A DNA stretch of 64,000 nucleotides, taken from IMG/VR virus record IMGVR_UViG_3300042731_008053; one strand, given 5' to 3'. The notes beneath the pieces are model-generated. The model worked only from the letters and a program-made list of their open reading frames with translations, was not told the DNA's origin and did not search any database. Below, one piece after another: positions 4,685-58,202 of this stretch. Position 1 is the first letter of the stretch. Every line of letters begins with the position of its first letter. The stretch is from a virus. The position numbers were made by a program, and so were the translations under genes.

Positions 4685-4974
4685 GTCCCTATCACTGCCC
4701 AGGCTGCGGGCGACTTGTGGCGGATTGTTTGTGCGAAACACCCCACCCCAGAAGCCGCCGCGCGCTTCAGCAGCGGCTATCAACACGTCAGGGTGATGCA
4801 GCACCGGTCTACATGGATCTCATCCGGATCGAAGGCGTGGAGTTCGAGCGCACCGAAGTCGGCTCGCTCAAAATCCACGCACCCGGAGCGAAACCCAAGT
4901 ACGCGTCGGCTGCCAAGGCGCGCGATCTGTTGACGTTTTTACTCCAGAATTTTTCTGCGACGGGGGACGCATAG
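4681..4974 (+). CDS. hypothetical zinc-binding protein
   Basis: ATGA overlap with the DUF4326 gene; CPGCGRLVADCLCE cysteine cluster. Confidence 0.4.
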   Translation: MSPYHCPGCGRLVADCLCETPHPRSRRALQQRLSTRQGDAAPVYMDLIRIEGVEFERTEVGSLKIHAPGAKPKYASAAKARDLLTFLLQNFSATGDA

Positions 4975-4976
4975 CA

Positions 4977-5237
4977 ATGAAACCGTTGCCAGATGTCCTC
5001 GACGAGTGCCTCCCAGTCACAGCTGACACAGCTCGTCGCCGCGCTACCGCACCGAACTACCGCGTGGCTGTAAGGGTCACCCACACGATTGAGGTCGATG
5101 TCAAGGCCAAGCACAGCCGGGACGCTGCCCACGCAGCTGTGGATAAATTGAGGACAGCAAGAATCCGGATCGACGGGATCGAAGAGGAGATCTCAACACC
5201 AGAGATCGTTTCGGTACGAGCGCGCAGAATCGACTGA
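4977..5237 (+). CDS. hypothetical protein
   Basis: ORF track; starts 3 nt after the upstream stop. Confidence 0.4.
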   Translation: MKPLPDVLDECLPVTADTARRRATAPNYRVAVRVTHTIEVDVKAKHSRDAAHAAVDKLRTARIRIDGIEEEISTPEIVSVRARRID

Positions 5238-6234: not shown

Positions 6235-6430
6235 TCGATTTTGCAGTACTTCAAACCGATCGACACCCACGTGACGTATGCGCGCTGCGCTGAACCGTGG
6301 CGCCGCCACAGTCACGAGACCGGCACGTGTCGCGTCAGGAACACAGTCGCCCACATGGCCCTTCGGTAAACGGCAATGCGCTCAGAGATCTATGCTCACC
6401 TGGCGCCCGATGCGTTTGAGGGGGTGCGAC

Positions 6431-6459
6431 GTCTACCTGAGATGAATGCTGTTGGAAGA
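6431..6459 (+). promoter_or_regulatory. Conserved motif copy 1: GTCTACCTGAGATGAATGCTGTTGGAAGA
   Basis: One of three near-identical copies (see 6824 and 11375). Here the internal ATG opens only a 9-codon frame; the next gene starts 57 nt downstream. Confidence 0.5.
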
Positions 6460-6515
6460 TTGGCCGTGTGAGGTGTGCACTTCTTGCTGCTCTTGAACGG
6501 GGATCCAGGTAAGCC

Positions 6516-6854
6516 ATGGAACGGTACAAGACAACCCATGATCCAACCGGACGCGTATGGCAGATCGAAGATACGCTCGTCAGCGGGGGTCGCCAGCGCA
6601 ACAACCGAATCGTCGCCCAGAACCTCAACTACACTGACGCACATTGCATCGTCGATCTCCTGAATCTCGGCGACAACACCGAGCTGAAGCGTGACGTGGA
6701 AGTCTACAGCAACGCGCTGGCAGCAATCGTCGCGACAGGCGGCAAGGCACCTGAGTGGTATCGCCAAACGGCTGCGGATGCGTTCAGCCAACGCAACAAC
6801 GAACGGAACGCCGCCGCTGATACGTCTACCCGAGATGAATGCTGCCGGAAGTAA
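6516..6854 (+). CDS. hypothetical protein
   Basis: ORF track; the 3' end contains motif copy 2. Confidence 0.5.
   Translation: MERYKTTHDPTGRVWQIEDTLVSGGRQRNNRIVAQNLNYTDAHCIVDLLNLGDNTELKRDVEVYSNALAAIVATGGKAPEWYRQTAADAFSQRNNERNAAADTSTRDECCRK
6824..6851 (+). promoter_or_regulatory. Conserved motif copy 2: GTCTACCCGAGATGAATGCTGCCGGAAG
   Basis: 25/28 identical to copy 1. The ATG at 6835 is in frame with the downstream gene. Confidence 0.5.
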
Positions 6855-7464
6855 ACGGATCATGCCGCCCTGGAAGGGTTTGGGGCTCCGTGCCTACCCT
6901 GAAGCGGTCGATGACGCCCTTTCGCGAAAACTGGATTGTGCGCGCGTCTGTGCATTGATCGGCAACGCCGAAGATCGATGGCTGATGGGCAAGGTCGCTA
7001 TGACGAACACGTGGGACACGTACATGTTGTTCCATCTCACGAATGACAGCGCTGCGTTGCTGTCGTGGGTCAACGCGGCCCGTGGACGTGAGTGTCGAAC
7101 CTACGATTGGAAACTGGCTGAAGGATCGCTGTTGGATCTCTGGGAGACGCTTCCCACGACTGTTCAACGCCAGCTAATCACCGTGCCTTTGTTTCGTCTC
7201 AAAGAGGACGCTACGCCCCCGGATGGTTTGGCCGCTGCTGCCGCTGTCATTGACACTGTCGAACTCAACTTGCTTTCAGCCCTTCCACTTCAACCTGTCG
7301 CACGCACTCACAACCGATACCAACACCCGTTCGATCTGGCGTGGGCGCTCTACCTCAATTCGTTCTATCCGGGGAAACGGTTGTGGGTCGAGCGCACCGA
7401 TAAAAACCGCGTCGTTCACAAAGAGTACACACAGACCAACGTCAGCACGTTCTACAACGATTGA
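6835..7464 (+). CDS. hypothetical protein (alternative start 6862)
   Basis: Frame of ORF 6691-7464. The first ATG lies inside motif copy 2 (MNAAGSKRIMPPW...); no recognised domain. Confidence 0.5.
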   Translation: MNAAGSKRIMPPWKGLGLRAYPEAVDDALSRKLDCARVCALIGNAEDRWLMGKVAMTNTWDTYMLFHLTNDSAALLSWVNAARGRECRTYDWKLAEGSLLDLWETLPTTVQRQLITVPLFRLKEDATPPDGLAAAAAVIDTVELNLLSALPLQPVARTHNRYQHPFDLAWALYLNSFYPGKRLWVERTDKNRVVHKEYTQTNVSTFYND

Positions 7465-22562: not shown

Positions 22563-23099
22563 TTGGGTAGACAGTCTCACGGTAACCGTCCAAGACCAAC
22601 CGGGCCTCGCACCAATAGCCGCATCCGTTTTTCGCCGGTCTTCGTTGTCCTCGAAGACGGTACCAAGCTCGGTGTCATGCCAACTGACGACGCGCGCACG
22701 AAAGCAGCCGAGCTGGGACTTGACCTGGTTGAGGTGTCACCCAATGCACGTCCACCTGTCTGTAAGATCATGGACTTTGGTAAGTTCAAGTACGACGAAA
22801 AGAAGCGTAAGAACGAACAGAAAAAACGCCAAGCCAAAGTCGAGTTGAAGATCATCAAGCTGCGCCCAAAAACGGACACGCACGACCTGGCGTTCAAAGC
22901 CAAAGCAGCTCGCAAATTCCTCGAAGCCGGCAACCGGGTCCAGTTTGAAGTGCGATTTCGTGGCCGTGAAAATGCGCATCCCAGAACGGGTCGCGCCGCG
23001 CTCGACAAGTTGATGGCGGACCTGGTCGATGTTGCCAAGCTCGAACGAGCCGCTCGCTACGAAAACCGTGTCATGACGATGCTCGTCGGCCCAAAATAG
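22563..23099 (+). CDS. infC: translation initiation factor IF-3
   Basis: RTNSRIRFSPVFVVLEDGTKLGVMPTDDARTKAAELGLDLVEVSPNARPPVCKIMDFGKFKYDEKKRKNEQKKRQ...VRFRGRENAHPRTG is collinear with bacterial IF3 N- and C-domains. Non-AUG start (TTG) 6 nt after SD GGAAGGAAG, as in other IF3 genes with non-AUG starts. Confidence 0.85.
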   Translation: MGRQSHGNRPRPTGPRTNSRIRFSPVFVVLEDGTKLGVMPTDDARTKAAELGLDLVEVSPNARPPVCKIMDFGKFKYDEKKRKNEQKKRQAKVELKIIKLRPKTDTHDLAFKAKAARKFLEAGNRVQFEVRFRGRENAHPRTGRAALDKLMADLVDVAKLERAARYENRVMTMLVGPK

Positions 23100-41172: not shown

Positions 41173-41470
41173 CGCACGAGGCGTGGTGGATCGCTTATGC
41201 TAGAGGTGTTCACGGCCTGCCTTCCTCAGGTAGTGGACTCGCGGCGGTGCGCGTCCAACGTGCCGCCGCACTTCGTTGAGGTCCCAGCGTAGCGAAGCGT
41301 GCTGCCGGAATCAACCGTCGAACGGTGTTTCGAGCTGTCGCGCGCTTTAACCTCGTTTCAACAGGTTACAGTGCTGATCACGAAAACCTGAGTGATTACT
41401 TCTTGGTACAACAACACCAAGAAAAAAGTACGCAGTTTCAGTGAGCTACGCTCGTCGCTCGATCCGTCGA

Positions 41471-41739
41471 GGGGGGATCTACTGACATCTAACGGACTTC
41501 TAACTGAACCTTGATCTATGAAATTACTGAGGAAAAGGTCGATTTAAGTAGATCCCCCCCTCTCCTATTCCCCCACAGTTTCGGCCTTCATTTATTCTAT
41601 TTATCTATCCATGGATAAATACTTGTCGGATCTTTTAGTATAAAGGGGGGATCTACTTCTACTAAATAAGCTTCAGATCGCTAATGTTGCAAGCACTTAA
41701 GGCGAGTAGAAGTAAATATAATGCCAACGAGGATCTACT
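41471..41739. repeat. Iteron cluster: GGGGGGATCTACT (41471-41483), inverted copy AGTAGATCCCCCCC (41547-41560), GGGGGGATCTACTTCTACT (41645-41663), GAGTAGAAGTA inverted partner (41704-41714), GGATCTACT (41731-41739)
   Basis: Read directly from the sequence. Confidence 0.7.
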
Positions 41740-41820
41740 TTTTTTGTTGTGTAACACACAGCCGAAAAACGGCGAGATCGACTGTTTTGTGGTGAAGAGT
41801 ACGTTTCACTATTCAAAATC

Positions 41821-41940
41821 GGGCCTGCATTGGGCCTGCATAAGGCCCAACCGGGCCTGTATACATCCCCGTCAGGGCCTGCATACGGGCCCAACCGGGG
41901 CCCGACTGGGCCCAATTCGGGCCCAATTGGGGCCCAACTG
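41821..41940. repeat. GC-rich degenerate tandem array: GGGCCTGCAT x3-4 followed by GGGCCCAAYYGG x5
   Basis: gggcctgcattgggcctgcataaggcccaaccgggcctgtatac...gggcctgcatacgggcccaaccggggcccgactgggcccaattcgggcccaattggggcccaactgg, immediately upstream of the RHH-AP2 regulator gene. Confidence 0.7.
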
Positions 41941-41990
41941 GGACCGTTTATGCATAAATTGTCAGCGCTGGGGTGTATAACGAGGGGGAT

Positions 41991-42587
41991 ATGACACAGC
42001 AACGCAAATTCAACGTTTTACCGGAGCTGTACGCCTATCTGGAAGAACGTGCGGAACGCAATTTTCGTAGTGTTAACAACGAGCTAAACGCGATTCTGGC
42101 AATGCTGCAGACGCAAGATCAGCGCACGACGGCGCCCACGCAGCCTATGGCGACCGTCACGCCCCTGTTCGGCAACCCGACAGAGCCGTCAGACGAGCAC
42201 GGTCCCAAACGCGGTCCCCTAAACACCATTAGCGGCTACAGGGGCGTCTATCCGTACGGCAAGCGCTGGAAGGTCGTCGTGTACGAAAACGGCCGCCAAC
42301 GCCGCCTGAGCGCCTACGACACGCCTCAAGAAGCAGCCCTGGCCTACGACGCCTACGTTCGTGCGCTCGACCCCCAGGCGCCGCTGAACTTCCCCGACGC
42401 AAACGAGGTCAGTGTTGCCGACACCGACGAAATCGCGATCCGCCCCGAGGCGCTCGCTGCTATTGAGCAAGGGCCCGTCCAAGAAGCACCCTTCCCCGAT
42501 TTCGAGGATGTGTCGCCCCCCTTCGATTTTGAGAACCCGCCACCAGGCATTGTCCGCCGACCCCGTGACTCCAGTGATCTGGACTGA
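41991..42587 (+). CDS. transcriptional regulator: N-terminal ribbon-helix-helix (Arc/CopG-like) plus AP2 DNA-binding domain
   Basis: KFNVLPELYAYLEERAERNFRSVNNELNAILAML (RHH pattern); ISGYRGVYPYGKRWKVVVYENGRQRRLSAYDTPQEAALAYDAYVRAL (AP2 pattern). SD GAGGGGGA upstream of ATG 41991. Confidence 0.6.
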   Translation: MTQQRKFNVLPELYAYLEERAERNFRSVNNELNAILAMLQTQDQRTTAPTQPMATVTPLFGNPTEPSDEHGPKRGPLNTISGYRGVYPYGKRWKVVVYENGRQRRLSAYDTPQEAALAYDAYVRALDPQAPLNFPDANEVSVADTDEIAIRPEALAAIEQGPVQEAPFPDFEDVSPPFDFENPPPGIVRRPRDSSDLD

Positions 42588-49432: not shown

Positions 49433-49779
49433 TAGTTGTTTCCTCCAAGAAGGTTTTCGGCTAGCTGACACGCATCGCAGGAGCACGGACCACTGAGGGG
49501 GAAACGGTATCGATGATTGCGCAGCATAGCCGCCAGGGCCCCGCGCAGTTCCTCGGTCTCAGACAATACAGCCTCGTCGATCAGCTTCTGGATGGCCGAT
49601 GTTGCTGCCTGTGCAGCCTCGTCGGTTGAGTCCTCAGCATAAATAGCGTCGGTGAGATCCAGGATCCGTCCGACCGTGATCGACTGCTTTTCCACGTCTT
49701 CTACCGTAGCATTCAAGCAGGTAAACTCCCTATGGATTCTTGGGTCAGGCACGTGTCGGGTAAAAAGAGTCGCTGGCAA
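49432..49779 (-). CDS. hypothetical protein
   Basis: ORF track. Confidence 0.4.
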   Translation of the reverse strand: MPATLFTRHVPDPRIHREFTCLNATVEDVEKQSITVGRILDLTDAIYAEDSTDEAAQAATSAIQKLIDEAVLSETEELRGALAAMLRNHRYRFPLSGPCSCDACQLAENLLGGNN

Positions 49780-51496
49780 AGTAAAGGTTGTTGCGCTTCT
49801 CGACTAGCTTGTTCGATGTCAGTGCAGACAAATAGTTAGCGAACGTAGAGGACCGCGTCGAATGTCCAGCGGCCTCTGCAATTTCATTTCGACCCATTCC
49901 CTGGGGATAACACTCAACGAGCAGCCTGAGCATCGTCTTGGCGTTTCCCGGCAGTTTGGGTAACCACAACTCCAGCAATCGTTGAGTCGTCATGACGGGT
50001 ACAGTGTCGCGACCACCGACTGCATCAAGACCTGTTTTGGTCAGGACGTAAGGCGCGTTTCGGCCGCCGTCAATGTATCCGGCCGTACGCAACGTCGAAA
50101 GGTAGTTGTTGAACGTGCTCGACTTGATGCTGAAACCCGACAAGGTGGACACCTGGCTACGTGTCAACGGGGTGGGGTGCAAAGACGCAATGGCCATGAG
50201 GATCTTGGTTGGGCCGCTTCCCAATCCGTTGGGCTTAGGTGTTGAGGACGCAACGCTAGTTTCGACTGTTGGTGATGGCGCTGGAGGTTTTGCGACACCG
50301 TTAGAGCGTTTGGGGACTGCGGAACTACGCGGCGGTGTCGATGTCGATGAAGGTGAGCCCAGTTGCACGCCGGCCTCATGCAGGGCGCTGCGGATCGACA
50401 TGATTGTGTCCTGAACGACCTGACCCATTCCGTGCAACCTGTCTATCGCGTGCTTGAACTGACGCATCTGATCGTCGGTAATCACTGGGACCGCTACCTG
50501 CTCGACGTCAGTGACACGAGTTGCAAGCTCGTTCTTCAGTCGAGACACAGTAGCCTGCGCCGACGACAAGAGTTTGCGAAGGTGCTGCGGATCGCGTTGT
50601 TTTGCTGCCTCAATGGTTTCAGCCATCGCCGCCGACATGGCGTCCAGATCGATCTTGGCGAGCTTTCGCTTGGGCTGTTTGGTGCCAGCTTTTGGTGTCG
50701 CTGAGGTATCGGCTGTGCGCTTTTTGGCGATTTTCACGCGGCCGTAAAAATCAAGCCACTGAGGGCTCCACACGATAGCAGTGCCCGTCGGCAGCTTCGT
50801 AATCACAGCCGCGTCCGCGTCGTGGATTCCCTTATCAGCGATCCACTCTTTGATCGCCTTGCGCTCGTGTGGACCTGTCATCTGGAAGGCGAACAAACAC
50901 TCCGTCTGATTCAGGACGTCCTTGTTGACCTTCTGCGGACGTTGCGAAATGAGCGACACGCCAATGCCGTAATTGCGGCCCATCAACGTCAAATCGCTCA
51001 CGGCGCCAAGCAGACGCTCATCGCCGCCAAGCACTCGCTGTGGAACGAAGTGTTGCGCTTCGTCGATGATCACGTGCAGGGCCGAAGGGGCGTCTTTCTT
51101 TTTGTGGAACAACTCTTCAGCGAAATCGACGACGAACCGTTTGCGGTCGTTTTTGCGAAACCGGCTGAGATCGATGACCATCGACGTGCCCGTTTTGACG
51201 ACAAAATCCGCTACGACGGTACCGCCCGTCGGTTCGAGCGGAATATCTCCGTTGGCGCCACCGAGCACGGGGATCGAGTAGCCGGGCTTGCCGTTTTCGA
51301 GTGTACGTAAGCCCCACCAGTTTCCTACGGGGTCCAAAACAACAACCTGAGTACCAATATCAAGAAGCTCTTCAGCGAGCTTTCCGCACGCATAGGTCTT
51401 GCCGCTACCTCTGCGTCCCATAAACGCGAACGTCTGGGTGACAGCGTCGGTCGGAAGCTTCAGGTTTCGTGCAAGATTAATGGTTCTCTTCTTCAT
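49745..51496 (-). CDS. FtsK/HerA/VirB4-superfamily P-loop ATPase (DUF87/AAA_10-like) with two C-terminal winged-helix repeats
   Basis: FAFMGRRGSGKTYACGKL (Walker A) followed by VVVLDPVGNWWGL; HVIIDEAQHF (Walker B); two repeats of ...TRSQVSTLSGFSIKSSTFNNYLSTLRTAGYI / ...GRNEIAEAAGHSTRSSTFANYLSALTSNKLV (wHTH-like). Confidence 0.65.
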   Translation of the reverse strand: MKKRTINLARNLKLPTDAVTQTFAFMGRRGSGKTYACGKLAEELLDIGTQVVVLDPVGNWWGLRTLENGKPGYSIPVLGGANGDIPLEPTGGTVVADFVVKTGTSMVIDLSRFRKNDRKRFVVDFAEELFHKKKDAPSALHVIIDEAQHFVPQRVLGGDERLLGAVSDLTLMGRNYGIGVSLISQRPQKVNKDVLNQTECLFAFQMTGPHERKAIKEWIADKGIHDADAAVITKLPTGTAIVWSPQWLDFYGRVKIAKKRTADTSATPKAGTKQPKRKLAKIDLDAMSAAMAETIEAAKQRDPQHLRKLLSSAQATVSRLKNELATRVTDVEQVAVPVITDDQMRQFKHAIDRLHGMGQVVQDTIMSIRSALHEAGVQLGSPSSTSTPPRSSAVPKRSNGVAKPPAPSPTVETSVASSTPKPNGLGSGPTKILMAIASLHPTPLTRSQVSTLSGFSIKSSTFNNYLSTLRTAGYIDGGRNAPYVLTKTGLDAVGGRDTVPVMTTQRLLELWLPKLPGNAKTMLRLLVECYPQGMGRNEIAEAAGHSTRSSTFANYLSALTSNKLVEKRNNLYFASDSFYPTRA

Positions 51497-51533: not shown

Positions 51534-52025
51534 CTAGTCGTAGGTGCCGAAGTCGGGCATGTTGGTCTCGACGATCAAATCGTCAGCAGCGGAGGTGAGA
51601 CTGCGTTTTACGTCTGTCGTTGTGGCAGGAAACGGGCCGGTTAGACGCAAAATGGCCCACGCAGGTTCTGCGCCGAAAAGCGTTTCGTCGAGCTGATCGA
51701 TAGCGTCCCAGTCGCCCTGACCGGTGAACTCCAAACAGACGATACCCGCTTCGTCACCCAACTGGCGGCCGATCGCATCGCCGCCAGGAGACATGATCAA
51801 CCAGTGCAGTGCCAGCTCCTCGTAACCGCTCTTCAACGCGCGGTAGTACATCAACGACTCGAAAAACGGCCGCTCGAAAAGCCACAACCGCGAAATCACA
51901 TGATCGACATCGCAGCTCTCTTCGTGTTTACCAAAAAGCTGAGCGAGTGGGTGAACGATCCCCTTTCGGTAGTCGTTCACGATCCACTCGGCTGCGCTGA
52001 AACCAGATCCCCATGATGTGGTCAT
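51534..52025 (-). CDS. hypothetical protein
   Basis: Internal ATG of ORF 51534-52061. Confidence 0.4.
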   Translation of the reverse strand: MTTSWGSGFSAAEWIVNDYRKGIVHPLAQLFGKHEESCDVDHVISRLWLFERPFFESLMYYRALKSGYEELALHWLIMSPGGDAIGRQLGDEAGIVCLEFTGQGDWDAIDQLDETLFGAEPAWAILRLTGPFPATTTDVKRSLTSAADDLIVETNMPDFGTYD

Positions 52026-52987
52026 TACGCCAACCCGTATGAGTAGTTGATCGAAAGGCAATCTTCGATGCCCTCAAACCAGATGTGACCGCGCTCGGGG
52101 ATGTGCGCCGCGTCGCCCCATTCCCGCGAACCCGTGAAGACGTCGAAGTGTGCACCGTAGATGCCTCCGCCCGTGTCGTTCACGGTGAACCAACCATCGT
52201 GCACAGTCCCGTCCGGCAACGTCTTGCCGACGAACTCCAGAATGAAGACCTTGGTGCCGGCCGGAACGACGCCACCCTTCCCTTTGAACGAAGGATCGTG
52301 GTGACGCATCCGGCCGTTGTCGGCCGCCAGCGAACGGAACGGATCCATTGGAATGCCTTTGGCCTCCACAGGGTAACCGGTCTCGGGTGACGCAGGCTTT
52401 TCATAGAACCGTCGTGCAGCATCGACGCCGCTTTGGTCAGGTGTGAGCGACACACCGCCCCAATTCGGTTTGTGGAGCCAGCCGTTGGCCTTGATAATCG
52501 AATACACCCCGGTCCAGTCGCTTGGATCAACGGAGATGTAAGAACCATCAGCGACGTTGATCAAACGGCCGTCCCGAAGCTTGGTTGTTCCTTCAAGGGC
52601 AGCCTCGACGAAACAACCAGCCTCGACAGTAGCGATCACGCTGCCGTCAGAACCGAACATCGGATACGCCTCGGGACCGCTCCACCGCGACTGGTCGCCG
52701 ATGTAGTAGTAGGTGAGCTGCCAACGGCGCATCGATTTGATGTCCACACCGGCAGCCGTCAGATCACACTCTGCCTGCTTGAACTTGTCCACGAGCGGCA
52801 GCAGTGCACTCTCAGACTTGGGGCCGTACCACCCATCCGCCGCGCCGGCTTTGGAGCGATAATCGCGCTGGAACTTCTTCAAGTCTGTCCGAAATTCAGG
52901 CTCCATGTAGTTGCCGTCGATGGGCCCGTCGTAGTATCCGAAACGGGCCAACCACTCCTGGACTTCAGTGATGCTCAGCTGTGTCAT
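52025..52987 (-). CDS. cell-wall hydrolase candidate: N-terminal peptidoglycan-binding domain (PG_binding_1) plus C-terminal 3D-domain (MltA-like) lytic transglycosylase; endolysin candidate
   Basis: VQEWLARFGYYDGPIDGNYMEPEFRTDLKKFQRDY (PG_binding_1 pattern); DTGGGIYGAHFDVFTGS (3D-domain signature). Confidence 0.7.
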   Translation of the reverse strand: MTQLSITEVQEWLARFGYYDGPIDGNYMEPEFRTDLKKFQRDYRSKAGAADGWYGPKSESALLPLVDKFKQAECDLTAAGVDIKSMRRWQLTYYYIGDQSRWSGPEAYPMFGSDGSVIATVEAGCFVEAALEGTTKLRDGRLINVADGSYISVDPSDWTGVYSIIKANGWLHKPNWGGVSLTPDQSGVDAARRFYEKPASPETGYPVEAKGIPMDPFRSLAADNGRMRHHDPSFKGKGGVVPAGTKVFILEFVGKTLPDGTVHDGWFTVNDTGGGIYGAHFDVFTGSREWGDAAHIPERGHIWFEGIEDCLSINYSYGLA

Positions 52988-53016
52988 TTGGGTCTCCTTG
53001 TCAGGGGGTCTACTGG

Positions 53017-53105
53017 GTGCCGACCGGGGTGCCGACCGGGGGTGCCGACCGGGGGTGCCGACCGGGGGTGCCGACCGGGGGTGCCGACCGGGGTGCCGAC
53101 CGGGG
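53017..53105. repeat. 7 tandem copies of a 12-13-nt unit TGCCGACCGGGG(G), flanked by GGTCTAC(T) direct/inverted repeats (53006, 53146-53184)
   Basis: Read directly from the sequence, in the intergenic gap upstream of the lysin gene. The + strand ORFs over it translate to ADRGCRPG repeats and are spurious. Confidence 0.85.
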
Positions 53106-53183
53106 TCGTGTGGGTCTAAGGGCGTTCACCGCATAAAGGCAGCCGTGGTAGACCTGCCCGGTCTACTGTCCGGTCTACGTCTA

Positions 53184-53393
53184 CTAGAACGTCGTGCCAC
53201 ACTGTGGACAGGTCGAAAAATCGGTCGTTTGTACATGACCGCAGACTCCACAGCGGTACTTCTCGCGTGCGGGCGTAGGCGTAACAAGTCCGGCGGCCTT
53301 CGCAGCCAGATAATTGGGACAGTAGCGTAGATGGGCACGCACTGATTGTTTGTTCTGAAACCAACGCTGACAAAAACCACATCGACGCGACAC
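53184..53393 (-). CDS. hypothetical double zinc-ribbon protein
   Basis: CGFCQ...CPNY...CGVCGH...CPQCG. Confidence 0.45.
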   Translation of the reverse strand: MSRRCGFCQRWFQNKQSVRAHLRYCPNYLAAKAAGLVTPTPAREKYRCGVCGHVQTTDFSTCPQCGTTF

Positions 53394-53774
53394 CTATTGC
53401 TCGTCTCCTGTTTTGATGCGTGGTGCGTTCGCGGCGTAGATCGCCTGCATGATCGTTTGCGCGGCCCGTTGGATCAGCGCCGGACGGTTATCGGGGTCTT
53501 GAAGCAGTCCGAAGAACCGCTTCCACGGTAAAAGGCCCAGCGAAACGAGGCGACGTGGCGCCACCACAAGGATATACGGTACGGGGTGATCGGAATCATT
53601 TTGTAGAATGATTTTGGTACGGTACGTGCGAGCGATGTGGAGGTGTGTCGGCTGGCGAGTAATCACAACGGGCTGCTCGTGATCACCTAGCGGCTTTTCG
53701 ATCGTAACTACGATCGCGTCTTGTGGCGGCACGATGCCAAAGGCTGGCGTCCGCATCGTACCGGAGTGGTTCAT
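53394..53774 (-). CDS. hypothetical protein
   Basis: ORF track. Confidence 0.4.
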   Translation of the reverse strand: MNHSGTMRTPAFGIVPPQDAIVVTIEKPLGDHEQPVVITRQPTHLHIARTYRTKIILQNDSDHPVPYILVVAPRRLVSLGLLPWKRFFGLLQDPDNRPALIQRAAQTIMQAIYAANAPRIKTGDEQ

Positions 53775-54163
53775 GCACTTTCGGGAGGTAAGTCGCCAGA
53801 ATCTGCCGCACCGTAATCCTCAACCTCAACGACGTTTTCAGGGAGAGCGGGCCGCGAGAAGTGTACTACGTTATTGGGCGGAAAGACCTCATCAGGAGGC
53901 GGCTGAGACGGCTCTGTCTTCGCCTTTTTTGTTGATTTCTTTGCGGTCTTCTTGGCGTTCGAGGCCTTCTTGTTGTCTTCGGGTTTTCCCGTGACCCCTA
54001 ACGCCTTCGCTCGGGTGATCAAAAACGAGACTCCGACGCCCAATAACGGCGCTGCCGCACGAAGCGATCCAGCTTGCTGCACCGCGTATTCGATCATCTG
54101 TTTCTCTACGTGACGAAGCGTCCGTTCGTACGCCGAGTTTTCATTCTTTTTCCGTCGAGCCAT
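53771..54163 (-). CDS. Fis-family HTH DNA-binding protein with Lys-rich tail
   Basis: LRHVEKQMIEYAVQQAGSLRAAAPLLGVGVSFLITRAKALG matches the Fis/HTH_8 C-terminal helix-turn-helix; followed by a KKASNAKKTAKKSTKKAK tail. Confidence 0.55.
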   Translation of the reverse strand: MARRKKNENSAYERTLRHVEKQMIEYAVQQAGSLRAAAPLLGVGVSFLITRAKALGVTGKPEDNKKASNAKKTAKKSTKKAKTEPSQPPPDEVFPPNNVVHFSRPALPENVVEVEDYGAADSGDLPPESA

Positions 54164-54497
54164 CGTCCTCCTCCGGGGCTGGACCCGTGTAATCAAAAGC
54201 CCGCAAATGAATTGCGGCTACAAGAGGGGTCCACACGATCGAGCACAATGCGATCACGAATGGTGTTACCCAAAGGCGTCCGGGGAGACCTAAAAAGGGC
54301 AGATCACGCCACCATCCGATCGAAAAACCGATAGCCAGGCCGTACCAGAAGCCAGAGCACGCTGTGCACATCATGAAGTTGTCGAGCCATTTTGGGTACC
54401 TCGACCATAACCATTGGGTGATCTTGGCGCGCACTCCCAGGTAGTACAGCGACGTCGTCAGGAGAGCGTAAAGGACAGGAACAGCGAAAACACTCAT
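54141..54497 (-). CDS. small membrane protein with CxxC (DUF1360-like, tentative)
   Basis: 3 TM segments; MCTACSGFWYGLAIGF. Confidence 0.45.
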   Translation of the reverse strand: MSVFAVPVLYALLTTSLYYLGVRAKITQWLWSRYPKWLDNFMMCTACSGFWYGLAIGFSIGWWRDLPFLGLPGRLWVTPFVIALCSIVWTPLVAAIHLRAFDYTGPAPEEDDGSTEKE

Positions 54498-55174
54498 CGG
54501 GCTGATCGCTTTCTCCGCCGTGAGCCTTGCTGTTTGGGACGACGGTCCAGACGCCGACGGAACTTGGCCATCTTCTTTTCGATCATTTGTTGTTTGAGTC
54601 CTGCCGTATGATCGATAAGAAGGCCACCGTCGAGGTGTTCGATCTCATGGCAGAGCGCACGCGCGAGAAATCCGTAGGCTTTGATCTCGAAAGCGTCACC
54701 GGCTGGTGTACATGCGCCAACATGAACCCAAACCGGACGCGGCACACGTACCCATACTTTGGGAAACGACAAGCAGCCTTCTCGATCCAGGACAACGTCC
54801 TCGGAGCGGTCCATGATTTTGGGATTGATCAACCCAAACGGGTAACCTTGGGTGAGATTATCTGCGACGTCGCCGGAGACGACCACGACGCGCTCGGTGA
54901 TGCCCACCTGAGGTGCGGCGATGGCGGCGCCGTCATGTCGATCGAGGGCTGCTGCTAGAAAGCGCAGGCCTTGGCGCAGTGTGCTGTGGTCGTCATTGCC
55001 AAAGGCGTCGGACTCGACAGACGTGCATACCTTGCGCAGCCGCGCGTCTCCAAAGACAAGCACGGCCGGGACCGCCTCAGGCGGCAACGCGCCCCAACCG
55101 TAGATCGGCTCGGGCGTCCCCATGATCAGTTTTGAGCGTGGCAGGGGGTTTGTGTTGGCGTCGTCGAGACTCAC
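54494..55174 (-). CDS. def: peptide deformylase
   Basis: Motifs GAAIAAPQVG (motif I), EGCLSFP (motif II), HEIEHLDGGL (motif III). About 40-aa N-terminal extension. Confidence 0.85.
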   Translation of the reverse strand: MSLDDANTNPLPRSKLIMGTPEPIYGWGALPPEAVPAVLVFGDARLRKVCTSVESDAFGNDDHSTLRQGLRFLAAALDRHDGAAIAAPQVGITERVVVVSGDVADNLTQGYPFGLINPKIMDRSEDVVLDREGCLSFPKVWVRVPRPVWVHVGACTPAGDAFEIKAYGFLARALCHEIEHLDGGLLIDHTAGLKQQMIEKKMAKFRRRLDRRPKQQGSRRRKRSAR

Positions 55175-55602
55175 GTCTTGATCTTCTCCCCGCTGTCCAC
55201 GAGGTCACGCAGCTCGTCGGGAAGCTTGTCAAGAGGGTGTCCGGCCGTTGCGAGAGAGTGCCCGTCACGCCCCGTCCAGCCGTCACACAGGTACTGGCAG
55301 TGGACGAAGTCGGTGTTTACCTTACCTCGCATACACAGTCCTGCCGTCCCGGCGCGCATGAGTTTGTTCATCATTTGGAAGCGGGCGTCTTCTTCTTTGG
55401 TAGCAGGATTTTCCTGATCGCCGAGACGTGTCAGTGCGACAGCGCCTTGCTCGATTAAGGCCGCTACCTCTTGCTTACGGGTCTCTTCCCAACGTTTTTG
55501 GGCCAGGGCGCCGTTCTCAAAACTCTTACAATTCCAACACCCTCGACCGCGTTCGACGGTACGGTTGGCAGGTAGGATCACCCGGCCGGCTTTAGGCTTC
55601 AT
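55171..55602 (-). CDS. hypothetical protein
   Basis: ORF track; CWNC...C..C. Confidence 0.45.
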   Translation of the reverse strand: MKPKAGRVILPANRTVERGRGCWNCKSFENGALAQKRWEETRKQEVAALIEQGAVALTRLGDQENPATKEEDARFQMMNKLMRAGTAGLCMRGKVNTDFVHCQYLCDGWTGRDGHSLATAGHPLDKLPDELRDLVDSGEKIKT

Positions 55603-55739: not shown

Positions 55740-58202
55740 ATGGCGACCAAGACCAAAAGTCCGCTCCAGTTCGATCAAGCGAAACTCCAGGGAATGCAGG
55801 AGCCTTTGACGGTTCGTGTAGAGAAGATCAAAGGCAATACGCCATCGGCGATCTCGTTGCCAGCAAAGGAGGGTTACGCGCCCGGTGCGGGCTGGTCACG
55901 GGACGAGATCCTCAAAATCGAAGAGTGGTTGGTCACCGATTGGTCCGGCGGAGGGTATTACCGGATCAGCGTTACTGACGCCAACGGCGATACCATGCGG
56001 TGGGATACGATCTACGATCCGCGTACGTTCCCTGAGCAGGTCCCGCCGTCTCTACAAAAGGCCGCCGTTCCGAATCCCGTCGTGAACGTCGCCCAGGGTC
56101 AACAGCAGCAGGCCGCACCACAACAACAGCAAACGCCACCGCAACCGCACGGCACGCCATTTCAGCAGCAGGGCTTTCCGGGGATGTGGCCGCCCCCTGG
56201 CGCTGCGTTCTCTTCGGCACCGGCACAAATGCGGCCAAACCAACAGGTCCCTCCACAGGGGCCGTGGGCCACGCAGGGGCCGACACAGCAGCCCGGTCCG
56301 TGGGGCGCTCCTCCATGGGGCACGCCGCCGTCGGGTCCATGGGGCGCACCGCAGACGACGTTTCTCGGCTACAACCCGATGGGACAACCGATGTGGGGGC
56401 CGCCTCAACCACCTATGCACACCCCGCGTGGATCACTACGGGCGTTCGGCGATCGTCCTGCCCCTGCTCGACGTGACCGTGATCGGGACCGCGAGGAGTA
56501 CGAGCGCCGCCAACGAGAAGAAGAACGCCGCCGTCGGGAACAGGATGAGCAGCGTAAGCGGCACACTGAGGAGCTTCGCGCCCGCGACGAGCAGCTGCGT
56601 CAGATGCAGCTCCAGCAAAAAGAGACAGCGCACCAAGCTGCACTCGAACGCCAGGCCCAGCAGCATGAACAGCAGTTGGCGGCACTCAAAGAAGAGCTTC
56701 GCCGTCTTGGTGAGGGGTCCAAAAACAAAGAGGCCGATGAAGTCCGTGCAGCACGCGAAGCAAAAGAACGGCTCGAACGTGAGCGTGAGCGTGAGCGGAT
56801 CGAAGCGCAGTTCCGGGCACTCCAGGAGGTGATCGCCAAAGTCGCTGAGAAACCCACCGACGATCCCAAAATGCGGTTGATGGAGCAGCAGCTGCAACAA
56901 CAGCGCGCTGAAGCAGAACAGCGCGCCCGCGAGTACGCCGAGCAACTGCGTCGGACTGAGGAACAACGTCAGCGCGACATGGAGCGCGCACAGTGGGAAA
57001 AGGCGCAAGAGCAACTCCAACAACAACTGGCAGCACAGGAGCATCGGACCAAAGAGATGCTCCGCGAGGTGTCATCTACACGGCCCGATCCAATGGTCGA
57101 GTTCATGAAGGAAAATGCGCGGCTTTCACAGGAGCAGGCACGTATGCAAGCCGAGAACATGCGTGAGATCGCCCGCATGCAGCAGACGTCGGCTGATCGC
57201 ATGTCGCAGATGATGATGACACCGCAAGCGCTGGCGTCTATGATCCGCGATTCCAGTTCGGGCGCTGACATGATGCTCAAGAACGTCGTCGGCTCCATGT
57301 CGGGCGTCTTCGACGTCTTCCGGGGCGCGGTCGAACAGATCACGCAGCTCACGGGTGGCGCGCCTGAGCCGCCAGCTGCCCGCATCATCGAGCAGGGTGT
57401 TGCCCGTGCCGGCGAACTTGCCGACCGCTACCTCGCCGTGAAACGCGAGGAGGTGATCAGTAAAGCCCGTGTCGAAGCTGCACAGGCGCAAGCAGATGCG
57501 CATGTCAAGGCGACCGCCGTTCAGGCGCAAATGCAAGCGCAAGCTGAGGCCGCCAACCGCGCAGCGCAACAACAGCAGGCCGCCGCTCGGATGGCATCAC
57601 AACAAGCAGAGACCGTCGGACGCAAACCGACCAACGGTGTGTCGTCAGACAGCGGCCTGGGTGGCGCTGCCCCGCCGCCTCCGACAAAACCTGTACAGGA
57701 AGCCAAAAAGTCAACGCAACCGATCGACGACGGTCAGCAAGACCCGCAGACAGGTCAAACAATCGCCAAGGTCGTGCCGATTCAAGGCAAAAAACGGCAG
57801 GGCTACACCGACGAGGAATGGTTCGGCCCGGCACTCGAATCCGTACGTCGCCTGCGCGCAGGAGTCAAGACGTTCATGGACAACCTGCGGGTCGCACAAG
57901 AAGGAGGCGAGCCCGAGATTGGTGATGACGGTGAACCCACTGGCCTCAACCCGGACAAGGCTGTAGACGCTATTCTCAAGGGCGTCAACTACGTCAGTGT
58001 CAACAGCATCGCTGTCAAAGCATTCGACGACTTGTTCAAGCAAGGCATGTTCGCCGACTTCATGGACATCTGCCTGCCAGAAGCACCCCAGCCGTATCTC
58101 GATGACTGCGTGAAGATCTTGACCGAGGAGGTCGAGATGAATATCACCGACACTCCGCCGGCTGATCTGGTGGATCCCAGTCTTGCGCCGCCTCCGGCGT
58201 AA
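55740..58202 (+). CDS. 820-aa Pro/Gln-rich low-complexity plus long coiled-coil protein (structural/scaffold-like)
   Basis: About 130-aa PQ-rich region (QQQQAAPQQQQTPPQP...PWGAPPWGTPPSGPWGAP), then about 350 aa of charged heptad-like coiled coil, then a C-terminal globular part. Confidence 0.6.
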   Translation: MATKTKSPLQFDQAKLQGMQEPLTVRVEKIKGNTPSAISLPAKEGYAPGAGWSRDEILKIEEWLVTDWSGGGYYRISVTDANGDTMRWDTIYDPRTFPEQVPPSLQKAAVPNPVVNVAQGQQQQAAPQQQQTPPQPHGTPFQQQGFPGMWPPPGAAFSSAPAQMRPNQQVPPQGPWATQGPTQQPGPWGAPPWGTPPSGPWGAPQTTFLGYNPMGQPMWGPPQPPMHTPRGSLRAFGDRPAPARRDRDRDREEYERRQREEERRRREQDEQRKRHTEELRARDEQLRQMQLQQKETAHQAALERQAQQHEQQLAALKEELRRLGEGSKNKEADEVRAAREAKERLERERERERIEAQFRALQEVIAKVAEKPTDDPKMRLMEQQLQQQRAEAEQRAREYAEQLRRTEEQRQRDMERAQWEKAQEQLQQQLAAQEHRTKEMLREVSSTRPDPMVEFMKENARLSQEQARMQAENMREIARMQQTSADRMSQMMMTPQALASMIRDSSSGADMMLKNVVGSMSGVFDVFRGAVEQITQLTGGAPEPPAARIIEQGVARAGELADRYLAVKREEVISKARVEAAQAQADAHVKATAVQAQMQAQAEAANRAAQQQQAAARMASQQAETVGRKPTNGVSSDSGLGGAAPPPPTKPVQEAKKSTQPIDDGQQDPQTGQTIAKVVPIQGKKRQGYTDEEWFGPALESVRRLRAGVKTFMDNLRVAQEGGEPEIGDDGEPTGLNPDKAVDAILKGVNYVSVNSIAVKAFDDLFKQGMFADFMDICLPEAPQPYLDDCVKILTEEVEMNITDTPPADLVDPSLAPPPA

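Follow-up and report, generated by a model that had tools for sequence, protein, structure and literature searches.

A tandem array of 12-13-nt units between a Zn-ribbon gene and a lysin gene of a virus-like element, and its possible origin by replication slippage

The lysin gene on the virus record IMGVR_UViG_3300042731_008053 is preceded by a GC-rich tandem array, and the locus raises the question of whether this array is a dedicated control element or a product of local duplication. We analyzed the whole 64,000-nt stretch of DNA in which it lies (hereafter, the window). An original prediction, made from the sequence alone, had described seven tandem repeats of 12-13 nt beginning at 53017 and had suggested a second regulatory or origin-like site, a binding array or a phase-variable spacer. 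The seven repeats were confirmed: TGCCGACCGGGG is present seven times on the plus strand, exact and head-to-tail, with copies starting at 53018, 53030, 53043, 53056, 53069, 53082 and 53094, and the predicted start was one base early. The start-to-start spacings are 12, 13, 13, 13, 13 and 12, the 13-nt spacings reflecting one additional G after units 2-5. TRF delimited the array at 53015-53105 (period 13, 7.2 copies, 96% matches) with a score of 168, the top score in the window. Shuffled sequences held a mean of 0.55 matches to the unit at ≤1 mismatch, and 0 of 100 shuffles reached seven. A search for the unit elsewhere, proposed with the original prediction, returned no further copy in the 64-kb window outside the array, with ≤1 mismatch allowed. 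Read along the minus strand, which is the sense strand for both flanking genes, the array is (CCCC(C)GGUCGGCA)7, also written as CCCC(C)GGTCGGCA repeated seven times. The mixture of 12- and 13-nt units preserves no reading frame, and the array is non-coding, lying between the Zn-ribbon stop codon (53184) and the lysin ATG (52987). The features of the locus are collected in Table 1.

Table 1 Features of the lysin gap, of the surrounding gene string and of the RHH-AP2 gene, in window coordinates
Feature	Position	Strand	Basis or remark
Unassigned 143-aa ORF, first of the gene string	55171-55602	-	
Peptide deformylase	54494-55174	-	
Unassigned 118-aa ORF	54141-54497	-	
HTH_50 protein	53771-54196	-	
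Upstream gene: 69-aa protein, C2H2-like finger and C-terminal Zn ribbon	53184..53393	-	weak Pfam and PDB zinc-finger matches
Doublet TCTACGTCTACTA overlapping the Zn-ribbon stop codon	53174..53186	+	sole other window copy in the hub, at 41652
Second small tandem repeat, 12 nt x 2.1: CTGCCCGGTCTA / CTGTCCGGTCTA (sense strand GTAGACCGGACA / GTAGACCGGGCA)	53154..53178	.	TRF and direct-repeat scan
Inverted repeat GTAGACC-N5-GGTCTAC	53148..53166	.	arms 53148-53154 and 53160-53166
Partly conserved gap core GGTCTACCACGGCTGCCTTTATGCGGTGAACG	53123..53154	-	aligns with GGGTCTACCGAATGGTCCTTATGTTGAAAAG in L007 and with the corresponding L005 stretch
Tandem array of seven exact TGCCGACCGGGG units	53018..53105	.	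exact copies and TRF
Proximal GGTCTACT (sense strand AGTAGACC), between array and ribosome-binding site	53007..53014	+	direct reading
Shine-Dalgarno AAGGAG preceding the lysin ATG (52987) by 6 nt	52994..52999	-	direct reading
Downstream gene: 320-aa lysin, PG_binding_1 and 3D (MltA-like) domains	52025..52987	-	domain matches, weak PHROG endolysin matches
RHH-AP2 protein	41991-42587		

The array occupies part of a 196-nt gap, the sole sizeable one in a tightly packed minus-strand gene string that extends from 55602 to about 49745 and whose members overlap or abut. After the HTH_50 protein, the order is a 126-aa protein, the Zn-ribbon protein, the lysin, a 163-175-aa protein and a HerA/FtsK-like ATPase. 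The placement of the repeats upstream of a lysin gene was thus correctly predicted, the array ending 30 nt from the lysin ATG and the lysin assignment being backed by its domain and PHROG matches (Table 1). In the sense direction the gap opens with the stop TAG, TAGAC, GTAGACCGGACA and GTAGACCGGGCA, followed by GGTCTACC and ACGGCTGCCTTTATGCGGTGAACG, and closes with the seven array units, CCCAGTAGACCCCC, TGAC, AAGGAG, ACCCAA and the ATG. Its GC content is 70%, and that of its non-array part 59%. Because the array lies inside a gap of a same-strand gene string, immediately before the lysin gene, it should be transcribed. In a consensus scan, sigma-70-like sites (55725-55622) preceded the gene that opens the string, and neither a sigma-70-like promoter nor a terminator-like site was detected within the gap, which fits the array as an internal transcribed spacer. 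As for a contingency repeat in a promoter spacer, the array was found outside any recognizable promoter or ORF and downstream of the conserved core. An intrinsic terminator at the GTAGACC hairpin was ruled out by the same scan of the gap, and the CCTTTATGC core, tried as a recurrent promoter motif, gave 36 matches against 30 expected, with no promoter family emerging.

Four syntenic relatives share the gene order PDF - x - HTH - x - Zn ribbon - gap - lysin, the Zn-ribbon gene being kept. Their lysins are 78% (L002), 67% (L003/4), 62% (L005/6) and 60% (L007/8) identical to that of the window, and their gaps measure ~200, ~81, ~122 and ~86 nt, respectively. The array is absent from every one of these gaps. 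A MAFFT alignment shows it as inserted sequence in comparison with L003, L005 and L007, and a core in the 5' part of the gap is common to the window, L005 and L007 and weaker in L003. This core, which reads GGTCTACC-ACGGCTGCCTTTATG in the window and GGGTCTACCGAATGGTCCTTATG in L007, may be a regulatory or promoter element, and TCCTTATGT is confined, among all loci, to the lysin gaps of L005-L008. At the array position L002 has non-repetitive sequence; its local alignment with the array units scored 17, compared with 12.5 +/- 2.2 for shuffled sequence (p about 0.05), a marginal value with two units matched. The nearest lysin homologue, P0002 (L002 1564-2748), had been called as a 394-aa protein extended upstream through the 200-nt gap. 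This call is a gene-calling artefact, and a Shine-Dalgarno-preceded ATG at 1781 gives a protein of ~320 aa.

Directly after its Zn-ribbon stop, L005 carries a tandem repeat of its own (4881-4905, 11 nt x 2.3, GACTGTCGCAC) together with an inverted CGACAG. These repeats occupy the same position as the GTAGACCGG repeats of the window, indicating that different lineages bear different short repeats there. With small tandem duplications in both gaps (12 nt x 2.1 in the window, 11 nt x 2.3 in L005), the spacer looks duplication-prone and fast-evolving. Outside the syntenic group, GenBank phages searched by blastn and with the lysin by tblastn yielded no match, and neither did IMG/VR searched by protein and by repeat pattern. 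The lysin relatives recovered in a metagenome scan were all at ≤54% identity, and 0 of the 10 with upstream sequence have a Zn-ribbon ORF ahead of the lysin or the array. Two units side by side, sought in 185,579 GTDB species genomes, gave 20 scattered matches with unrelated flanks, mostly in high-GC actinobacterial genomes; at each of these, 2-7 unit-like copies lie within 200 nt when up to 2 mismatches are allowed. The occurrence of adjacent units in 20 unrelated genomes suggests that the unit is a generic GC-rich sequence that duplicates readily, and not the marker of a family.

The relatives found all lack the array, and the likeliest account is therefore an ordinary repeat formed by replication slippage, not a conserved control element. 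We give about an even chance to the fuller reading that it is a lineage-private minisatellite of the VNTR type, which slippage created in a regulatory spacer that is transcribed and evolves fast. Its source would have been slipped-strand mispairing or unequal recombination in the untranslated interval between the Zn-ribbon and lysin genes, and its unit-length blocks (12, four of 13, 12, 12) would record stepwise duplication of a 13-nt variant. Presumably carried in a polycistronic or leader RNA, the array would have a single certain effect, placing ~90 nt of C-rich, ribosome-free RNA between the lysin ribosome-binding site and the partly conserved core and GTAGACC sites upstream of it. Its copy number is probably unstable, and if lysin expression is influenced at all, this would follow from the length of the leader, with no dedicated conserved function. 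The array shows three of the features by which minisatellites are recognized: tandem copies of high identity, a non-coding and frame-independent position, and absence from more distant relatives. The phase-variable tandem repeats of Mycobacterium tuberculosis are intergenic VNTRs of a high-GC bacterium and resemble the array in having a near-perfect tandem unit of >6 nt in non-coding DNA by a gene start, with lineage specificity and a plausible origin by slippage (PMC12817950). VNTRs are defined by copy-number polymorphism, whereas the array is known only from identical seven-copy contigs and its nearest relative is 78% identical; its unit falls short of classical MIRUs in length, and it is carried by a virus-like metagenomic contig.

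Some considerations weigh against slippage. Phage-like genomes are compact, and selection could act on a perfect 91-nt array that lies so near a start codon (30 nt) and is bracketed by two copies of GGTCTACT. Several DNA-binding proteins of the element could use it, namely the RHH-AP2 protein, the HTH_50 protein, the Zn-ribbon protein and the ATPase with its weak winged-helix match. The identity of the units fits recent expansion and purifying selection equally. Because the relatives without the array all have ≤78% lysin identity, there is also room for a function that evolved recently. If the array is a mere slippage repeat, it offers a strain-typing marker, marks a breakpoint of short-read assembly, and indicates that local duplication is how the Zn-ribbon/lysin spacer evolves in this virus group. 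If instead it binds a regulator or loads Rho, it would provide a handle on lysin timing in an uncharacterized virus group.

The copy number of seven is very unlikely indeed to be an assembly artefact. Two further sequenced copies of the array are available, one 100% identical and one truncated inside it. The former, on a second JGI contig of 42 kb, matches the window at 100% identity over 12,963 nt, the seven copies included. The latter comes from the k-mer-based Logan assembly of SRR11696381, which agrees base for base until its contig ends within the array, so that the start of the array is independently confirmed and its copy number is not. Such a break is what an artefact would lead one to expect, as short k-mers cannot resolve four consecutive identical 13-nt units; against this, the JGI contigs agree with each other, the Logan contig agrees to its end, and 91 nt is less than a typical read length. 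At 90% identity the lysin cluster has a single member, represented by two contigs.

The array is surrounded by copies of GGTCTAC and its complement. GGTCTAC occurs nine times in 64 kb, only a marginal excess over the 4.46 expected, and four of the nine copies fall within 172 nt (53007-53178). These counts give ~0.024 copies expected per 172 nt, which puts the local clustering far beyond chance. Two exact copies of GGTCTACT, at 53007 and 53160, bracket the array 153 nt apart, in agreement with the predicted flanking direct repeats; a third copy, GGTCTACG, begins at 53172 and is followed by GTCTACT at 53179. The inverted repeat that had been described with a 7-nt spacer is present, but its 7-nt arms are separated by 5 nt, a spacer of 7 nt being obtained only with 6-nt arms. 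Tested genome-wide, GTAGACCSG was not enriched (29 copies against 23 expected), and the clustering is local only.

Similar motifs recur in a second non-coding region, the hub (41173-41990), which spans ~800 nt, is AT-richer and lies between divergent gene blocks. It contains GGGGGGATCTACT motifs at 41471, 41548 (inverted), 41645 and 41730 and, at 41821-41942, directly upstream of the RHH-AP2 gene, short tandem arrays of GGGCCTGCAT (3-4 copies) and GGGCCCAACTG (5 copies). The doublet TCTACNTCTACTA, expected 0.04 times, has just two copies in the window, one in the hub (41652) and one at 53174, and this restriction suggests a site for a shared regulator. GRTCTACT occurs nine times in the window against 1.47 expected, with four copies in the hub and two in the lysin gap. 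The original prediction had the array unit itself resemble the iterons of the hub. These rare motifs are indeed common to both regions, but the unit is not significantly similar: its best match to a hub unit was 10/13 (GGGTGCCGACCGG against GGGGCCCGACTGG), shuffled units did as well in 248 of 500 cases, and p was about 0.08 by Smith-Waterman alignment. The GGTCTAC/GTAGACC cluster is a feature separate from the array and most likely consists of binding sites for a regulator that would also act at the hub, and the shared motifs support a regulatory link between hub and lysin gap whose likeliest form is shared protein-binding sites. The suggestion of a regulatory site is accordingly plausible for this cluster, with its rare doublet common to the hub, in a gap that is kept and whose core recurs in three relatives. 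In L051, whose RHH-AP2 protein is 47% identical, the hub keeps the motif GGGGGATCTACT and a short array (9544-9556 and 9895-9915). The lysin gap of L007 has a single GGGTCTACC in the corresponding position, and the strict GGTCTAC-type 7-mer shows no clustering in the lysin gaps of the relatives, so that the multiplied sites of the window appear to be lineage-specific as well.

Could the array itself be read by a protein? It would then be a putative multi-site platform for the RHH-AP2, HTH_50 or Zn-ribbon protein, and cooperative occupancy of the seven units, close ahead of the ribosome-binding site, would gate transcription of, or read-through into, the lysin gene and so time lysis; we consider this unlikely. 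RHH proteins usually target tandem short repeats (ParR/parC, omega heptads, Arc/MetJ): ParR binds the 11-bp repeats of parC of plasmid R1, and pSM19035 has arrays of omega-protein heptads. Like these systems, the array consists of short uninterrupted direct repeats that precede a gene, and its element has an RHH protein of its own. Unlike them, it has no partition operon beside it, its period is non-helical, and the relatives do not conserve it. The RHH-AP2 gene is itself preceded by the hub arrays, and its L051 homologue by an 11-nt repeat; the AP2 domain is genuine (PDB WRI1 match, 3e-5), and the GGTCTAC motifs flanking the array are common to the hub. Every array unit contains GCCGAC, which matches the plant DREB/AP2 core RCCGAC and serves as a lead only. 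RCCGAC is, however, not over-represented, and among intergenic sites it forms a cluster in the array alone; the unit is found nowhere else in the window, and its similarity to the hub units is at chance level. The mean period of 12.7 nt is moreover out of phase with the DNA helix, and the relatives that keep the gap lack the array, an RHH-AP2 homologue being confirmed among them only on the L003 contig (39% identical). The more specific proposal, in which the GCCGAC cores make the units a dedicated RHH-AP2 landing pad and, with the hub-shared GGTCTAC sites, a copy-number-tunable switch of lysis timing, we regard as distinctly improbable; if true, it would represent an early example of a cis-element for a viral or bacterial AP2 domain that regulates transcription instead of serving in a homing endonuclease. 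An origin of replication with iterons, a partition centromere or a packaging-recognition site would likewise present a tandem direct-repeat array, and the HerA/FtsK-like ATPase with its PHROG match to a 'terminase large subunit' family is encoded 1.5 kb downstream. In phage and plasmid origins, iterons are direct repeats of ~17-22 bp beside an AT-rich unwinding region, with the cognate initiator adjacent. The array, although also made of direct repeats in a non-coding region, has units of 12-13 nt in a GC-rich gap with no AT-rich stretch; the adjoining Zn-ribbon and lysin genes are not initiators, and the DnaG primase is 23 kb distant. Genes for ParA, ParM, ParB or an initiator neither flank the array nor occur among the 40 ORFs scanned, and relatives with the same ATPase and lysin are without the array. 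In the tests that could be run, the array fell outside origins, centromeres and packaging sites alike, so that the predicted origin-like site was not borne out and all three roles are extremely unlikely. The hub fits iterons far better and is a better candidate than the lysin gap for an origin or a master regulatory region.

At the level of RNA, folding of the array gave -36 kcal/mol, compared with -45.4 +/- 3.1 for shuffled sequence (z = +3.1), and was weaker than in 200 of 200 shuffles; the whole gap gave z = +1.7 on either strand. With Rfam 15, the interval 52000-54500 gave no match at E <= 1, and across the whole window nothing reached the gathering threshold. These positive z-scores, for both strands and for the array alone, together with the Rfam result, ruled out a selected RNA element. 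Low structure would, on the other hand, suit a putative rut-like site, at which the C-rich, periodic and ribosome-free RNA past the Zn-ribbon stop would recruit Rho and attenuate transcription into the lysin and later genes unless read-through were permitted. In RhoTermPredict, a rut site is a 78-nt window in which C/G exceeds 1 and cytosines recur every 11-13 nt (PMC6407284), and the array formally satisfies this definition, being a 91-nt stretch within the 196-nt untranslated gap with a sense strand of 53% C and 30% G (TRF composition; C/G about 1.8) and C tracts every 12-13 nt. The definition is permissive, however, and the C/G skew of the array stands at only the ~88th percentile of the 78-nt windows in this DNA. 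Unlike rut sites, the array at 30% G is not G-poor, and its RNA still pairs appreciably, the core CCGGUCGG being self-complementary via G-U pairs and so forming three nested 8-bp helices. The relatives, again, are without the array, and we assign Rho loading a low probability. The lysin template strand carries seven G4-5 tracts, which might as DNA form a putative G-quadruplex (or an i-motif on the opposite strand) that slows RNA polymerase or replication. G4Hunter scores of 1.0-1.2 over 50-90-nt windows place the array in the top 0.1% of the window, and only one other region reaches 1.2 at a window of 50. A canonical G-quadruplex has at least four tracts of at least three G, separated by loops of 1-7 nt, and scores above about 1.2-1.5 in G4Hunter. 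The loops of the array (TGCCGACC) are 8 nt long and thus beyond the canonical range, its score is at or below the usual threshold, the C runs in the loops favour duplex, and the same absence from relatives applies; a quadruplex is very unlikely.

Several other features of the element were recorded. Five 6-bp palindromes are absent from the window, namely GTCGAC (33.8 copies expected), CTCGAG (30.6), TTCGAA (20.2), GAGCTC (16.2) and CCGCGG (15.6), a strong signature of restriction avoidance. CCGG, considered in connection with a restriction-decoy role of the array, has an observed/expected ratio of 0.9 and is not avoided. An 881-aa ORF at 7489-10134 (+) matches the Major Vault Protein shoulder (PF11978, 5.5e-26) and Vault_3 (PF17795, 7.6e-11), and a vault-protein-like gene is unusual in a virus-like element. 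The virus group appears to carry several translation genes: a full IF3 is predicted at 22563-23099 (+), with IF3_N and IF3_C at about 1e-29 each, in addition to the peptide deformylase (54494-55174, -), and L051 has IF3 and a PCRF/RF-1 release-factor-like gene at 4709-5161 and 6383-6895. The HerA/FtsK-like ATPase (49745-51496, -; 583 aa) has DUF87 and HerA_C domains, matches PHROG 2666 'terminase large subunit' at 3.5e-18 and is 36% identical to the 'hera helicase' of Caudoviricetes sp. MW202482. Its C terminus gives a weak winged-helix match (HTH_45, below the Pfam cut-off), and its gene is next to the lysin gene in L002, L005, L007 and L051. Among the 40 ORFs scanned, none matched a capsid family, and the PHROG match of this ATPase was the sole terminase-like one. 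Divergent from the string that runs from the peptide deformylase to the lysin, a gene at 55740-58202 (+) encodes an 820-aa protein that is Q/P/E/R-rich, low-complexity and coiled-coil-like, without a family match, and whose size and position are kept in L005 and L007 and partly in L003.
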